IMG/VR virus record: IMGVR_UViG_3300002061_000003
Strand: one strand, 5' to 3'
Length of the DNA stretch: 64,000 nt
Origin: a virus
The position numbers were made by a program, and so were the translations under genes. Below the pieces are notes generated by a model, which saw nothing but the letters and a program-made list of their open reading frames with translations, searched no databases and was not told where the DNA came from. How positions within the stretch are numbered: the stretch's first letter is position 1; the number at the start of each line of letters is the position of its first letter. Shown in pieces: positions 25,468-31,965 of this stretch.

Positions 25468-27918
25468 ATGACTCCGATGGAAATACAAGCACTAGCCCCA
25501 GGTAAGAAAATTGCTCAAGGCGGTTACGGTAATCCCAAAGCTTCAATCGTATTCGTGGGCGAATCTCCAACAGCTGCAGAATTAGTCAAAAATGAAGCCA
25601 GTAAAGCTGTGCTAAAAGTTCTCGGAGATGTCTTTCCAGACTCATTCGATGCCGAGAACTTTTACTACATCAATGCGGTTCCATATCTCGTACCTAAAAC
25701 CAAAGACACTAAACGTAATACCGAGCTGACTGAAAAAGCTGCAATGGCTTGCCATAAATATATTACCGACGAACTTGCAAAGCATCCCCGAAAGATTATT
25801 GTATGCTTAGGTAATACAGCTATGTGGGCAGTGAATAATGACATCACTACACGCATTACACGTATTCGTGGACAAGTATTTGATTCACCCTTAGCCGAGC
25901 ATGGTATCTTAGCATCTGTACACCCATCCTTCTTACTTCGTGGTGGTGGTTCATATACTAAGTTCAAAAGAGACATCAACTATGCACTGGATATTGCACG
26001 AGGTGTACCCCGCAAAGTATGGGATCAACCCAACTATGAAGTCTCACGGGATGAACAAGACGTAAAGGCATTCATTGATGTCACGTTCCTAGCGGCGGAA
26101 AGACTGAATGATTTCGATCTTGGGGCGGATATTGAAACGGGTGGCTTTGATCACATGGATGATGAAGTTCTTTGTCTTGGTTGGTGTGTTGATCCCGGCA
26201 TGGTATATATTGCTCAGGAAGAGCATTTAGAAGCCCTCCATCATCGTGACTTCATGGTTCCGCGTTTACTTGGCGGTGTTTTTAATTGGGTCTGGCATAA
26301 CGGTAAGTTTGACGTTAAGTTCATGCGTACTCAAGGACATCTAAAGTCTGGTGTGGATCATGATACTATGCTCATGTCATACACAATGGAAGAGCGTGGC
26401 GGATTTCATGATCTTGACCAAGTAGCCTCTGATGAGCTTGGCGCACCCTATCACAAGGATATGCTTGAGGAATATCTACCAAGCAAGAAGTCATCTTATA
26501 GGGTTATTCCTAAACCTGTTTTACATGAGTATGCTGCATATGACGTATCGAAAACGAAAGGTATGCATACTCAGATGCTTAAACGCATCGAAGCCGATTC
26601 CAAAAACAAAAAACTATACCACCGAGTATTACTTCCAGCATCTGAACTCTTGTCAGAAGTGGAAGAGAATGGTATGCTTGTCGATATGGATAAGCGGGCT
26701 GAGAATGTAACCTACTTTGAAAACATCATGGCTGAGCACGCCGAAGCTTTGAATGCCATTGCTCTTGAGATCAACCCTGGTGCATTCTATAAGACTTCAG
26801 GTCCTAAGAGAGATGGTGGTGGACGTATCATTAAGGGCATCAATCCTAACAGCCCTAAACAGATCGGGGACCTGCTTTACAATCAACTCCGTCTAGCCAA
26901 AACCAATAAAGGTACTGGAGCCGATGTTCTTGAAAAATTGCCAGCACACCCCGCAGTTACCGCACTTCAGAAGCACCGCAAAGCCGCTAAAGCTTTCGGC
27001 ACTTATGTTAAGCCCTTGCCAGATCAAGTCTCTTCCGATGGACGAGTGCATTCAACTTATCTTATCCATGGTACTGCAACAGGCCGTCTCTCATCTCGCG
27101 GACCAAATATGCAAAACCAACCTCGCGATCCACGGATCAGAGGACAGTTTATTGCCGCAGAAGGCCATATGCTCTGCGAGATGGATTTGGATCAGGCTGA
27201 ATTGCGGTGTCTCGCAGCTCTGTCTGGAGATGAAGCCCTTTGCCATATCTATGAAACCGCAGGTCTATCTCTCCACAAAGTCGTTTCCAAAGAGATTTGG
27301 GGAGATGATTGGGTAGAGAGATATGCTCTAGACCTTCCAGGCAATGCGGATTATGATCAGGCCAAAGAAGAATACATGAGAACGAAGGCTTTGAACTTCG
27401 GTATTGTGTATGGCCGTGAAGCAAATTCCATTGCACAAGAATTTGAAATACCTACCGAAGAAGCTCAGCGTATGATTGATGGCTGGGCTAATCAATTTCC
27501 AACAGCCTGGAAGTTTATCGGTAAATGCCGTAATGCTCCTATCAAAGGGCAAAACCTGACAACTCCGTTCGGCCGTCGAAAGCGTGCTGGGGTCATCAGT
27601 CGTGAGAAGATTCGGGATCTTCAAAATGAAGCTTCCAACTTTCCTCACCAGTCGATTGCATCAGACATCACTTTGATGTCAGCAGTTAAAGTTCGTCCAT
27701 GGTTGAAAGAGCGTGGAATTAAGATCGTTAACCTTGTGCATGACGCTATCATTGTTGAATATCCGGATGATCATGATCTGTTCATTGAGATGGCCAACCA
27801 TGTAACTACCGAAATGGAAAAGACTCCGATAGAATGGGGCATTGATCGGATACCGTTCTCTGCTGATGCTAAAACAGGAAAACGTTGGGGCGATCTGAAA
27901 GACACGCCATTCAAATAA
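25468..27918 (+). CDS. polA: Family A DNA polymerase with N-terminal UDG-like domain and 3'-5' exonuclease
   Basis: UDG fold (VFVGESP, NAV, LGNTA, HPSFLLR); Exo I/II/III (DIET, HNGKFD, YAAYD); TGRLSS, DLDQAELR, KALNFGIVYG, VHD. Confidence 0.95.
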   Translation: MTPMEIQALAPGKKIAQGGYGNPKASIVFVGESPTAAELVKNEASKAVLKVLGDVFPDSFDAENFYYINAVPYLVPKTKDTKRNTELTEKAAMACHKYITDELAKHPRKIIVCLGNTAMWAVNNDITTRITRIRGQVFDSPLAEHGILASVHPSFLLRGGGSYTKFKRDINYALDIARGVPRKVWDQPNYEVSRDEQDVKAFIDVTFLAAERLNDFDLGADIETGGFDHMDDEVLCLGWCVDPGMVYIAQEEHLEALHHRDFMVPRLLGGVFNWVWHNGKFDVKFMRTQGHLKSGVDHDTMLMSYTMEERGGFHDLDQVASDELGAPYHKDMLEEYLPSKKSSYRVIPKPVLHEYAAYDVSKTKGMHTQMLKRIEADSKNKKLYHRVLLPASELLSEVEENGMLVDMDKRAENVTYFENIMAEHAEALNAIALEINPGAFYKTSGPKRDGGGRIIKGINPNSPKQIGDLLYNQLRLAKTNKGTGADVLEKLPAHPAVTALQKHRKAAKAFGTYVKPLPDQVSSDGRVHSTYLIHGTATGRLSSRGPNMQNQPRDPRIRGQFIAAEGHMLCEMDLDQAELRCLAALSGDEALCHIYETAGLSLHKVVSKEIWGDDWVERYALDLPGNADYDQAKEEYMRTKALNFGIVYGREANSIAQEFEIPTEEAQRMIDGWANQFPTAWKFIGKCRNAPIKGQNLTTPFGRRKRAGVISREKIRDLQNEASNFPHQSIASDITLMSAVKVRPWLKERGIKIVNLVHDAIIVEYPDDHDLFIEMANHVTTEMEKTPIEWGIDRIPFSADAKTGKRWGDLKDTPFK

Positions 27919-27943
27919 ATTGATGGGCTAAAAATTTTGCCAA

Positions 27944-27972
27944 TTGATTTCCCTTATGGATGGTGTTATAAT
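27944..27972 (+). promoter_or_regulatory. Sigma70-like promoter
   Basis: TTGATT-N17-TATAAT. Confidence 0.75.
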
Positions 27973-27998
27973 ATAGGATAAAGCGAGGATTCGTATAA

Positions 27999-28277
27999 AT
28001 GAAAACCCTAGAACAGCGCACTCAAGCGTATTGGAACGTATCATCCAGATGGAATGGACGTTCGAACAACAAGAAACCACTGCGCACTTGTGATGCTTTG
28101 CGGGCTATTGGGAGTGTTACAGCTGTGACCTTCAATCAACGTCCATTAGCTACACGCGCAGCAATTCTGCAGAAGGCAATTATTTGCCATGGAAGCAGCA
28201 AACGCAAACGTCTTGCAGATAAAGGTGTTCATGCTGAACCTGCAGCCGTCGCAAGTTTGATTCAAGCTGAGGTATAA
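27999..28277 (+). CDS. Basic hypothetical protein
   Basis: GAGGA RBS; first gene after the promoter. Confidence 0.65.
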   Translation: MKTLEQRTQAYWNVSSRWNGRSNNKKPLRTCDALRAIGSVTAVTFNQRPLATRAAILQKAIICHGSSKRKRLADKGVHAEPAAVASLIQAEV

Positions 28278-28510
28278 TGTCCGATCCAAAATCATTCACT
28301 GAAAAGCATATGGATAAGCTAACCCAGCCTATCTATGGCACACCCACTGGTAGGCTTTCAACAAGCCAACCTGAAATGCAAGAACTTCCAGGTCCTCGTG
28401 GAATTAACGAAAGCTTTATGGAAGAACCTCTATCACTCGCCGAAATCGATTATGCTCAGGCAGAGCTTCGAATCATGGCATTCCTCTCAGGAGAAGATAT
28501 CAATGACTGA
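28277..28510 (+). CDS. Mini-protein made of the PolA palm motifs (fragment of a family A polymerase)
   Basis: GTPTGRLSTSQPEMQELP...EIDYAQAELRIMAFLSGED; GAGGT RBS; TAATG and ATGACTGA couplings. Confidence 0.7.
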   Translation: MSDPKSFTEKHMDKLTQPIYGTPTGRLSTSQPEMQELPGPRGINESFMEEPLSLAEIDYAQAELRIMAFLSGEDIND

Positions 28511-30815
28511 CCAATTGGTTGCAGACATCCACCCATCACTTGACGAATTCACTATGCCGTTGATTCGTGATGTCTGGGCAAAGAAATACAAGTGGGGCGA
28601 TGAACAGTCCATGTTCGATACTATCAACCGTGTTGTTGATGGTGTTTATGCTAAAGATGGAAGCGGTGAAGCACAGCAACAAATGCGTTACTTTATGTTG
28701 GCAGGTCTTTGGATGCCCGCAGGTCGTATTCTCGCTGGTGCAGGTACTTCGAAAAAAGTAACGTTGATGAATTGCTACGTCAATGGTACAGTGCCTGATT
28801 CAATGGAGGGAATTCATACCGCTATCGGGAATGTGATGTTTACACTTCAGCAAGGTGGTGGTATTGGGACAGACTTCTCAACGCTCCGTCCAGCGGGAGC
28901 CGCATTGAAGCGTACTGGTAAAGGTTCTGCAGCTTCTGGACCAATTCCATTTATGACGCAATGGGATGCAACTTCGAAGACTGTAAAGTCAGCAGGTGAT
29001 CGTCGTGGTGCTATGATGGCTACTATGTCAGATTGGCATCCTGATCTACCCGCATTCATCCAATGCAAACGTGAACGTGGGGTGATGGAGCAATTCAACA
29101 TTTCCGTTTTGGTTTCTGATGCCTTTATGGAAGCCGTAGAAGCCGATGCGATGTGGAGTCTCCACTTTCCTGCTGAGCCCGCTGAAGAGCGTGCATCTGA
29201 ATTAGTGGAACAAGATTTTGAAAAAGATGGCGTTACCTATTACGTCTATTCCGTTTGGAAGGCTCGTGACCTTTGGAATATGATCATGGAGAACACTTAT
29301 GATTATGCTGAGCCTGGTGTCATTTTCATTGACCGTGTTAACGACCTTAACAATCTACAGTATTGTGAGACTATCCGTTGTACTAACCCATGTGGAGAAC
29401 AACCGCTCCCACCTCATGGCGCTTGCGATCTTGGCGCTGTCAATCTATCCCGTCTGGTCGATGATCCTTTCACGTCTAACGCCGATGTTAATTGGGATAT
29501 GTTATCGAGGGTTGTCGCAGCTGGAGTGCGTTTCCTGGATAATGTCATCGACGTAACCCAATACCCGCTTGAAGAGCAAGCACAAGAACAATACGATAAG
29601 CGTCGTGTAGGTTTGGGTATTAGCGGTTTGGCTGATGCGTTGGCTCAAATGAAATTGGTATATGGCAGCAATGAAGCAGTTGCTATGACAGACAAGATCA
29701 TGAAAGCCATTGCCGAAGCTGCTTATGAAGCATCAGCTATGTTGGCTCAAGAACGTGGAGCTTTTCCTCTCTTCGATGCCGACAAAATCAATCGCCATTT
29801 CCTGGAGCAGCTTGATCCTCGAATTACGGATATGGTGAATGATCTGGGTCTACGTAATGGTGTTCTCCTAACCATTGCACCTACTGGCACCACTTCTTTG
29901 GTGTATGGGAACATTTCATCGGGGCTGGAGCCTAACTTCGCACATAGCTATAACCGGAAAGTGTTCTCATCCAACAACGAACATCAGGCTGAGACTTACG
30001 AGGAGGTTAAGACATATTTGTATAGCCTGCATCAGCGTCACGGTGATGGCTATAAAAACCCTGAAAAGCTTTTGGATCTGGACTACATGATCACAGCTCA
30101 AGAGTTGCCGGTTGATGCTCATCTACGTATGCAAGGTGCATGTCAGAAATGGGTTGATGCTTCTATTTCCAAAACCATTAACTTGCCTGAAGACATCACC
30201 TTTGGAGATTTTCAGGCCGTATATCTTCGGGCTTACGCTCTAGGGTGTAAAGGATGTACGACTTATCGCCCTTCCGATGTTCGAGGTTCTGTGCTTTCAC
30301 TTGCCTCAGACAAACCTGAAGAAGTCAAAGAAGGCCGCCCAGAAGCTTTGCCTGGCCTTACGTATAAGATCAAATGGCCTTCTTGGAATGCTTCCATCTT
30401 CTTAACCATCAACCATTACACTGACAACACACCTTGGGAAATTTTTATCCAGTCCAAAGATGCTCGTCATCAAGAATGGGTGACAGCTTTGACGGTGATG
30501 ATCTCAGCGTTGATGCGTTCTGGGATGGATGTCCAATTCATTGTCAAAGAATTGCAGGCTATCAAATCGACACATGATGGTGCTTTCTTGGAAGGTAAGT
30601 ATTATGGTTCGTTGCTTGCCCGTATCGGTGAAGTATTGGAACGTCATTTTCAATCTGAAGGTGTTATTGCAGTTGAGCCTTCAACCGAACCTGTAGAGGT
30701 AAATACTAAGGTTGAGATTCGGGGAGATGTTTGCCCTGAGTGTGAAGCCCCTTCAATGGTAATGGCAGAAGGTTGCATGAAATGCACTAACTGCGGTTAC
30801 TCCAAATGCGGTTAG
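28503..30815 (+). CDS. nrdJ: Class II (B12-dependent) ribonucleotide reductase
   Basis: PAGRIL, LMNCYV, GGGIGTDFS, TNPCGEQPL, CDLGAVNL, IAPTGTTS, GCKGCTTYR; C-terminal CPEC..CTNCGYSKC ribbon. Confidence 0.95.
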   Translation: MTDQLVADIHPSLDEFTMPLIRDVWAKKYKWGDEQSMFDTINRVVDGVYAKDGSGEAQQQMRYFMLAGLWMPAGRILAGAGTSKKVTLMNCYVNGTVPDSMEGIHTAIGNVMFTLQQGGGIGTDFSTLRPAGAALKRTGKGSAASGPIPFMTQWDATSKTVKSAGDRRGAMMATMSDWHPDLPAFIQCKRERGVMEQFNISVLVSDAFMEAVEADAMWSLHFPAEPAEERASELVEQDFEKDGVTYYVYSVWKARDLWNMIMENTYDYAEPGVIFIDRVNDLNNLQYCETIRCTNPCGEQPLPPHGACDLGAVNLSRLVDDPFTSNADVNWDMLSRVVAAGVRFLDNVIDVTQYPLEEQAQEQYDKRRVGLGISGLADALAQMKLVYGSNEAVAMTDKIMKAIAEAAYEASAMLAQERGAFPLFDADKINRHFLEQLDPRITDMVNDLGLRNGVLLTIAPTGTTSLVYGNISSGLEPNFAHSYNRKVFSSNNEHQAETYEEVKTYLYSLHQRHGDGYKNPEKLLDLDYMITAQELPVDAHLRMQGACQKWVDASISKTINLPEDITFGDFQAVYLRAYALGCKGCTTYRPSDVRGSVLSLASDKPEEVKEGRPEALPGLTYKIKWPSWNASIFLTINHYTDNTPWEIFIQSKDARHQEWVTALTVMISALMRSGMDVQFIVKELQAIKSTHDGAFLEGKYYGSLLARIGEVLERHFQSEGVIAVEPSTEPVEVNTKVEIRGDVCPECEAPSMVMAEGCMKCTNCGYSKCG

Positions 30816-30823
30816 GATAGACT

Positions 30824-31402
30824 ATGCAACTTTGCGATTGGGAAATAAGCCAGTTATGCGATTCTTCTAACGTAGCTGACGGTTCACGCTGGAGACCTAT
30901 GTTGGATCCTTTCGTGATGGAGAAATCTCGGATGGGATCTCTTTCTTACGGTCTTGGCCATTTCGGCTATGATATCAGGTTGGGTGATGCACTTGTAATA
31001 CCTGAGCGTGTTATGAGGCCGATAGATCCAGCAACTGAAACAGATCTCAGCACGTTACCCTATACTAACTTTGACTTGGAAACTCGGGCAGCAGTTCTCG
31101 AGCCAGGTCAAATGGTGATGGGTGGTACTTTGGAATACTTTTGCATTCCAGCTAATATCGTTGCTGTGGTTCACGATAAGAGTACGTTAGCCCGTTTAGG
31201 GCTAGCAGTTCAAAACACGGTTCTCGAACCTGGATGGAATGGTTTCCTCACAATGGAAATTACCAATCATGGGGTGAATGACATTGTCTTGAGTTCTGGA
31301 ATGCCTATTGCTCAAGTAATCTTTTACCAAGGTGAATTCCCTGATAGTGTATATGAGGGTAAGTACCAGAATCAACGTAAAGGGGAGGTTGCTCGATCAT
31401 GA
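30824..31402 (+). CDS. dcd: dCTP deaminase
   Basis: SYGLGHFGYDIRL, DKSTLARLG, LEPGWNGFLTMEI, IAQVIF, YEGKYQNQ. Confidence 0.92.
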   Translation: MQLCDWEISQLCDSSNVADGSRWRPMLDPFVMEKSRMGSLSYGLGHFGYDIRLGDALVIPERVMRPIDPATETDLSTLPYTNFDLETRAAVLEPGQMVMGGTLEYFCIPANIVAVVHDKSTLARLGLAVQNTVLEPGWNGFLTMEITNHGVNDIVLSSGMPIAQVIFYQGEFPDSVYEGKYQNQRKGEVARS

Positions 31403-31965
31403 GTAAACTAGGTATGAAGTTGATGATTGTGGGCTATGCGCGTCACGGTAAAGATACTGTGGCAGATTTGCTTACAGAGCATTATGACATGCATTTTGTT
31501 TCGTCATCCTATTTTATGGCTGAACGTGTTGTACTGCCTAAGATGCAAAAAGCTTGGCAACGATATCGTTCGGCTAGCCCTATCAAGGTTGAAAAACCTC
31601 CATTCCCTGAATATGCGGATCTTGACGAAGCCTATGCTGATCGTGTAAATCACCGGCAATTCTGGTTTGAGGCTATCAAAGAAGCCAACGAAGACGATCC
31701 GGCTTTTCTGTCTACAGCCATCTTTGCGGAATTTGATCTGTATGTAGGGAATCGTAACCCTCGTGAATTTCATGCAGCCAAATGTATGGGTCTTTTCGAC
31801 TTTTCAATCTGGGTGGATGCTTCTGAGCGTATGCCTCCCGAGGGTGAAGAGTCTAATGGCATTCAACCTTGGATGACAGATTATATTCTGGACAACAACG
31901 GTACTCCAGAACATCTGGAACGCAACCTACATCGTCTGATGGCTACCTTAGCCAAGAAGCGATAA
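31399..31965 (+). CDS. Deoxynucleoside monophosphate kinase
   Basis: P-loop IVGYARHGKDTVA; GNRNPREF; WVDASER; located among nucleotide-metabolism genes. Confidence 0.75.
   Translation: MSKLGMKLMIVGYARHGKDTVADLLTEHYDMHFVSSSYFMAERVVLPKMQKAWQRYRSASPIKVEKPPFPEYADLDEAYADRVNHRQFWFEAIKEANEDDPAFLSTAIFAEFDLYVGNRNPREFHAAKCMGLFDFSIWVDASERMPPEGEESNGIQPWMTDYILDNNGTPEHLERNLHRLMATLAKKR

Follow-up and report, generated by a model that had tools for sequence, protein, structure and literature searches.

An intact 77-residue phage gene holding an internal segment of a family A DNA polymerase, probably one of a family of non-catalytic modules

Positions 28277-28510 of the window (i.e., the whole stretch of 64,000 nucleotides analysed, a phage genome of ~64 kb from an algae-associated metagenome) hold a real, intact piece of a family A DNA polymerase (PolA) that is unable to polymerise. 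On the strength of the sequence comparisons set out below, we consider it probable that this small gene encodes a PolA-derived module of ~55 residues that has lost the polymerase function, belongs to a small, unannotated protein family of its own and acts in non-catalytic binding or mimicry. The mini-PolA ORF is thus probably a working small protein and not debris. The preliminary description of this DNA had reported an ORF of 77 aa on the plus strand with two PolA motif peptides, and both the ORF and the peptides are present as quoted, at the spacing given (19 aa in the ORF vs 20 aa in residues 535-588 of the resident PolA of the phage). The ORF matches the Pfam family DNA_pol_A (PF00476) with 39.1 bits against a cut-off of 34.3 (E 5.8e-10), the match covering only profile positions 115-173 of 381, i.e., from motif 2 to motif A, and BLASTP aligns it to the resident PolA with 28 of 60 residues identical (47%, E 5e-12). 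At the nucleotide level the ORF and the resident segment are 55% identical, and third-position matches (19 of 59 codons) are at the random level, which bears out the low nucleotide similarity noted earlier and argues that the ORF is not a recent duplication. A structure-based alignment places it on residues 568-626 of Taq Pol I, with Arg26 on Arg573, Asp58 on Asp610 and Glu63 on Glu615. A PolA profile based on 50 relatives of the resident enzyme and run over the six frames of 27919-28760 found the homologous stretch listed in Table 1 and no second PolA match. The in-frame codon-usage score of the mini-ORF (0.365) is close to the median of the real genes of the phage (0.347 +/- 0.108), and no off-frame window reaches it. 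The frame of nrdJ is also open for 56 codons 5' of its real start (window 28335-28502), overlapping the mini-ORF in another frame, probably by chance given the non-coding codon scores there.

Table 1. Features of the mini-PolA locus, in window coordinates
Feature	Position	Strand	Description
Resident UDG / 3'-5' exonuclease / PolA fusion	25468..27918	+	complete, own motifs 2 and A
Sigma-70-like promoter match	27944..27972	+	TTGATT-17-TATAAT with TG; consensus match only
ORF92	27999..28277	+	small conserved protein, between polA and nrdJ in all relatives
Mini-ORF start context	28269..28279	+	GAGGT, ATA, ATG; ORF92 TAA overlaps ATG
Mini-PolA ORF	28277..28510	+	77 aa, net charge about -8
PolA-homologous stretch of mini-ORF	28325..28495	+	profile of resident-PolA relatives, 42.5 bits, profile positions 510-567
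Motif 2 variant GTPTGRLSTSQPEMQELP	28337..28390	+	canonical T-G-R-L-S-S-x-x-P-N-L-Q-N-I-P
Motif A DYAQAELRIMAFLSGE	28448..28495	+	Asp aligned to Taq Asp610
nrdJ start context	28490..28510	+	GGAGA (S-G-E codons of motif A) 8 nt before ATG 28503
nrdJ-like class II ribonucleotide reductase	28503..30815	+	770 aa; PF02867 at 1.4e-125, TSCPD domain

The ORF is tightly embedded between its neighbours (Table 1). A GAGGT ribosome-binding site does lie at 28269-28273, 3 nt 5' of the ATG, and the proposed coupling to both neighbours is visible in the TAATG overlap with the ORF92 stop and in the nrdJ ATG at 28503, which falls 8 nt inside the end of the mini-ORF (ATGACTGA), so that the TGA stop of the latter (28508-28510) falls within nrdJ. 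The nrdJ start is backed by N-terminal alignment with relatives, and ORF92 has no Pfam or PHROG match. The ORF had also been placed just downstream of a consensus promoter, which is not borne out: the site precedes ORF92, 305 nt upstream of the mini-ORF, and promoter-like sites are not enriched in the region (12 found vs 13.9 expected in shuffled sequence). No Rfam family came near threshold for an RNA element before nrdJ (folding z-score -0.44), and a repeat search at the mini-ORF region gave only short, chance-like repeats. In the resident PolA, Gly539, Arg540, Leu541, Pro546, Asn547, Gln549, Asn550, Asp573, Gln576, Glu578, Leu579 and Arg580 are invariant in 50 relatives. UDG-fused family A polymerases have been reported from phages with modified thymidine (2026 NAR article, PMC13697223); the window phage, with its UDG-exonuclease-PolA fusion, has 7-deazaguanine genes in place of such a modification. 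Further downstream, a dNMP-kinase-like gene (31399-31965; phrog_38514, phrog_139) lies between the dCTP deaminase gene and thyX, at a position where relatives have a PF18909 dGTP_diPhyd_N gene, which suggests that one gene has replaced the other.

Relatives of the resident PolA are found in public assemblies at 60-75% identity. In all six relative loci compared (L082-L086, L088), polA is followed by a homologue of ORF92 (88-121 aa) and then directly by nrdJ, the stop of this small ORF and the start of nrdJ overlap or abut, and the mini-ORF segment is absent. The PolA tree puts the window phage in a clade of six with 100/100 support; four clade members and two outgroups are without the segment, and a single gain on the lineage of the window phage is the simplest account. 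Since six relatives lack the segment and the flanks hold no PolA remnant in any frame, the mini-ORF is a lineage-specific insertion of ~225 nt at the ORF92/nrdJ junction, and the relic of a polA gene replacement, offered earlier as the alternative, is set aside. The ATG of the mini-ORF, in the TAATG overlap, has the position of the nrdJ ATG in L082, and ATAATGTCYGAT is common to the starts of the mini-ORF and of the L084 nrdJ, at the same position as the nrdJ start in L082 and L084. As the start context matches that of nrdJ in these two relatives, the insert landed in the first nrdJ codons and took the nrdJ initiation site; it occupies the old nrdJ start and brings a new GGAGA for nrdJ, and owing to this takeover and to the GGAGA from the insert, ORF92, mini-ORF and nrdJ are still translationally linked. 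A candidate target-site duplication (AATGTCCGATCCAA vs AATGACTGACCAA) was rejected as too short and too diverged. The mini-ORF region gave no match in a DNA search against GenBank phages, and the PolA query no close relative in IMG/VR. Seven contigs carry the mini-ORF, all from one study, and the one that was aligned to the window shows no difference along its 12.2 kb. In L082, the closest relative, nrdJ (L082:8811-12146) encodes 1111 aa vs 770-804 aa in the others, with an intein-like insert beginning CFSGDTKF right after ...VTLMN.

Compared column by column with 255 true PolA segments, the mini-ORF keeps Gly-Thr, Thr-Gly-Arg-Leu, Pro, Gln, Pro, Asp, Gln-Ala-Glu-Leu-Arg, Ala and Leu-Ser, and the catalytic Asp by which a family A polymerase is tested is present in motif A (Asp58, on Taq Asp610). 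Other positions depart from the polymerases (n = 255 throughout): residue 33 is Glu where 99% have Asn, residue 36 Glu where 100% have Asn or Gln, residue 44 Asn where 100% have Arg or Lys, residue 17 Gln where 86% have His, and residue 49 Glu where 84% have Ala. Glu33 and Glu36 align with Taq Asn580 and Asn583, two residues that touch the DNA backbone in true PolAs; the ORF reads P-E-M-Q-E where true PolAs have P-N-x-Q-N. The earlier view that only the most conserved motifs survive is therefore right as to the presence of motifs 2 and A but not as to their content, several near-invariant residues being replaced. The module carries a net charge of -7 vs -2 in the resident PolA segment. The ORF ends 3 residues past motif A and is without thumb, fingers, motif B (O-helix Arg/Lys/Tyr) and motif C (His-Asp-Glu, with the second catalytic Asp), and since motifs B and C are absent the module is not a polymerase. 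Modelled with the family alignment, the ORF has a pLDDT of 62.8 and is predicted to be mostly disordered alone (0.39 in the Atlas model), the only confident part being the motif A helix at residues 59-71 (pLDDT 76-82).

The same module occurs, free-standing or fused, in at least nine other phage contexts, the free-standing proteins being 71-118 aa long. A search for similar small ORFs in other phages had been asked for, and profile and pattern searches show that the module is not confined to this phage; about ten contexts in very large databases nonetheless make the family rare. A HMMER (phmmer) scan of 1.84 billion representative proteins with the mini-ORF returned ordinary PolAs at no more than 55% identity and one other 77-aa protein, P0018. 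Word-indexed protein searches, run with the ORF or with alignment A1, gave no match other than the ORF and P0018. The latter, a free-standing gene on a high-GC contig, is 49% identical to the mini-ORF over 59 aa, with the same boundaries and with TPTGR, P-E-F-Q-D, EPLSL and D-F-A-E-L-E-L-R as common features. From P0018, tblastn led to residues 1-52 of gp80 of Caulobacter phage Seuss, a MazG-like pyrophosphatase (STGRLSRHQPEIQD...MDFSEIELKVIAHL). A more distant form (HGTVTGR...PEG...LDYAGLEARVMAG) is seen in a 195-aa early protein of N4-like Cbunavirus, whose genes lie downstream of RNA polymerase genes in Kosakonia phage Kc283 (L213:2309-2896) and Pectobacterium phage phiA41 (L214:2309-2896). 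All of these (P0018, Seuss gp80 and the Cbunavirus proteins) were found without a motif pattern.

Six further members (L175, L093, L184, L185, L195, and L212) were found by pattern, and each also matches outside it; five members came from patterns requiring P-E-x-Q or P-E, for which only the residues outside the pattern count as independent confirmation. L175 is a 164-aa protein with a phage zinc-finger domain followed by SPTGRLSRSQPEMQEL...ADFAELEGRV, L212 (187 aa) has a zinc ribbon and then TGRLSHSQPEMQS...MDFSAVEARAIAA, and carriers of the module include a zinc ribbon plus HTH-like tails. L195 is free-standing (71 aa; TGRITNLEPEMQEL...LDLSNLELRIMAWL), and L184 (81 aa) and L185 (118 aa), from two complete phages of 72 kb, are flanked by an SNF2 helicase and a primase and have the N-termini MSKPSPTGRLSES.PE.Q[ED][LV]P. 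In L093, a 255-aa protein of a 275-kb jumbo phage, GTPTGRISSSQPEFQELP is fused to a C-terminal domain common to hypothetical proteins of PaBG, Lu11 and phiRSL1. Several members are located in replication or nucleotide-metabolism gene blocks. In L093 (L093:3734-4501) a motif-A-like DLSALELRVSANL at residues 17-30 also stands before the motif-2-like peptide (99-117), an order permuted relative to PolA. A 312-aa HTH protein of the 275-kb phage (L182; G001:C1:9006-9143, minus strand) contains GATTGRVSCAEPN with a weak PF00476 match (E 0.03) and may be another degenerate PolA fragment.

Other candidates were rejected. P0002 is a TPR/CHAT repeat protein with a low-complexity match; L176, from a Terracidiphilus MAG, matches in ATGRLSSSQPE alone and shares its DNA with another ORF; L202 is an alternative frame within a primase gene; and L192, L193, L196, L199, L201, and L203 are chance matches. 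L191, L194, L197, L198, and L200 are terminase-small-subunit-like HTH proteins of an unrelated family, whose N-terminus, (M)TGRPTKLTPELQE, mimics the loose motif pattern and is a trap for pattern searches of this kind.

For the motif 2 part of the family we propose the signature T-G-R-[LIW]-[ST]-x-x-x-P-E-hydrophobic-Q-[ED] (TGRLSTSQPEMQE in the window), common to eight members, with Ser at the last site in L212 as the exception. The motif A-like part, D-[YFL]-[AS]-x-x-E-[LGA]-[RK]-[IVA], follows 14-20 residues past motif 2, with no PolA beyond; it is present in the window, P0018, Seuss, L175, L195, L212 and Cbunavirus, and L093, L184 and L185 have motif 2 only. Every member has Glu at the position of Taq Asn580, the first motif 2 Asn, against 0 of the 255 true PolAs, a state that is partly by construction in five members as the search patterns demanded P-E. 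The second motif 2 Asn is Glu or Asp in the members, Ser in one, and lost in the distant N4-like form, and Thr-Gly-Arg, Pro, Gln, the motif A Asp and Glu-Leu-Arg are kept across them. When the window was withheld from the profile, its ORF still came out on top among 257 sequences, at 59.5 bits vs 47.7 for the best true PolA.

Members vary at third codon positions, use both Ser codon families and range in GC content from 0.43 to 0.65; over the 21 N-terminal codons of L184 and L185 there are 10 synonymous changes and 4 conservative replacements, and the middle of these proteins is unalignable. Such saturation of synonymous sites argues for protein-level selection on the family, from which purifying selection on the window ORF may follow as well. 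The earlier judgement that the ORF is not simple debris is thereby strengthened: no fewer than nine other phage contexts have this module, with these unusual substitutions and with constraint at the protein level. The L212 homologue in Brevundimonas phage Strzyga is without zinc ribbon and module, and PaBG-type proteins are without the N-terminal half of L093. Each of the five carrier genomes that are complete also encodes a full PolA, from a different subfamily; in Seuss and the 275-kb phage, the module is unlike the resident PolA. Of all members, the window ORF comes closest to PolA, and its motif A has Gln at a site that is Glu or another residue in most of the others; for these two reasons it could be a younger, independent capture.

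We postulate that the module has lost the binding of primer DNA and, as the models suggest, would be a non-catalytic, largely disordered binding peptide plus a helix. It could display the invariant PolA surface to a partner, in mimicry or competition, or alternatively dock its carrier protein onto a replication-associated hub, in which case the free-standing form of the window phage may be a competitor or regulator of the same partner as the fused forms. The extreme N-terminal positions, the fusions to enzymes and DNA-binding domains, and the replication and nucleotide-metabolism blocks are easier to reconcile with a portable binding module than with a free decoy. We put forward only tentatively the more specific idea of a phage microprotein family cut from the PolA cleft, which would neutralise a host factor aimed at that cleft (a defence sensor, toxin or modifying enzyme) or serve as a docking tag (e.g., bringing MazG to the replisome); given that the module is present in cultured phages (Caulobacter phage Seuss and N4-like Cbunavirus), this idea is directly testable. 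Our limited literature searches found no description of such PolA modules. If the module is functional, phages reuse an internal and normally buried stretch of a central replication enzyme as an independent or fusible peptide with a new, non-catalytic role. A new small-protein family would then join the many unexplained phage ORFs, the unusual N-terminus of the MazG-like enzyme annotated in the cultured phage Seuss would have an explanation, and a new host-phage interaction around DNA polymerase could come to light. For annotators the case is a warning that a short PF00476 match in a phage genome is no polymerase, and not necessarily a pseudogene.

The peptide might instead be inert, a foreign polA fragment that illegitimate recombination placed in the first nrdJ codons and that is kept open only for the passage of ribosomes from ORF92 to nrdJ. 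Such a neutral by-product agrees with the lineage-specific insertion, the use of the nrdJ start context of the relatives (ATAATGTCYGAT), a GGAGA supplied fortuitously to nrdJ by the insert and the lack of a close homologue of the mini-ORF. It also agrees with a neutral drift simulation (four marker residues changed), in which the chance of an open frame is non-negligible, i.e., 0.46 with substitutions alone and 0.03-0.2 with indels, making the open frame weak evidence for selection on its own. However, it does not predict that rare substitutions and module boundaries recur in unrelated phages under protein-level constraint, and the two Asn-to-Glu changes take two base changes each; we regard it as unlikely.

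A decoy, an idea of the preliminary description and a specific form of mimicry, in which the peptide shows TGR...D..ELR without binding DNA and soaks up a host defence sensor, toxin or modifying enzyme, seems to us distinctly improbable. What is conserved is indeed what a real PolA cannot alter, the Asn residues that touch DNA are now acidic, the protein is small and acidic (with the module charge given above) and the carriers encode their own PolA, as in the five complete genomes. Nevertheless, the literature search found no defence link, the fusions to MazG, zinc-ribbon and other domains fit a docking module better, and a fragment that is disordered alone need not look like the folded cleft.

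We give very little credence to the scar of a mobile element, i.e., an intein, intron or homing-endonuclease cassette between polA motifs 2 and A that moved with its flanks and was then lost. The module is an insertion in several unrelated genes, an intein-like insert is found in nrdJ among the relatives, and some phage polA genes are split near motif A; yet no endonuclease or intein remnant lies beside any member, DNA-level similarity is nil while the amino acids are kept, and a common Asn-to-Glu change would be unexpected among scars. Least credible of all are dominant-negative inhibition of host Pol I and trans-complementation of the phage polymerase, both raised in the preliminary description and compatible with homology to the palm segment only: the residues that bind DNA are lost, motifs 2 and A of the resident PolA are complete, and invariant in 50 relatives, leaving nothing to complement, and the segment, which we take from the Klenow and Taq structures to be buried in the DNA cleft, is to our knowledge not a protein-contact surface.

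The module is homologous to the family A palm (PF00476; TGRLSS..PNLQNIP through DYSQIELR..LS), of which it keeps Thr-Gly-Arg, Pro, Gln, the metal-binding Asp and Glu-Leu-Arg; it differs in size (~55 residues against ~400 for the polymerase domain), in having neither motifs B and C nor thumb and fingers, and in having both backbone-contacting Asn as Glu. TV-Pol and the minimal PolA-like polymerases of mobile elements are also reduced relatives of the PolA palm, but they retain the full catalytic palm (motifs A and C) in more than 200 aa and are presumed active, whereas the module has motif A only. MicroProteins, described in plant and animal work, are small truncated paralogues that bind partners of the parent protein. 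They are the nearest concept, the module being likewise a small, catalytically dead, single-segment derivative of a large enzyme, probably preserved by selection, but they bind the partners of their parent and the parent segment here has no known protein-interaction surface. Like phage morons and lineage-specific ORFans, the mini-ORF is a single small gene between conserved neighbours that is absent from relatives; unlike them, it has an identifiable origin (PolA) and distant homologues in other phages. Split phage family A polymerases are likewise separately encoded PolA pieces with breaks near motif A, but their pieces sum to a complete enzyme, and the mini-ORF is an extra, divergent internal copy beside a complete resident PolA; a split-polymerase piece was rejected as an explanation, the resident PolA already having motifs 2 and A intact. 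In Bacillus phages BSP7 (L089) and BSTP12 (L090), polA is in two ORFs with the break ~30 aa past motif A and not at the mini-ORF end, for which reason this type of split was rejected as an equivalent; ~300 nt and small ORFs lie between the two halves.
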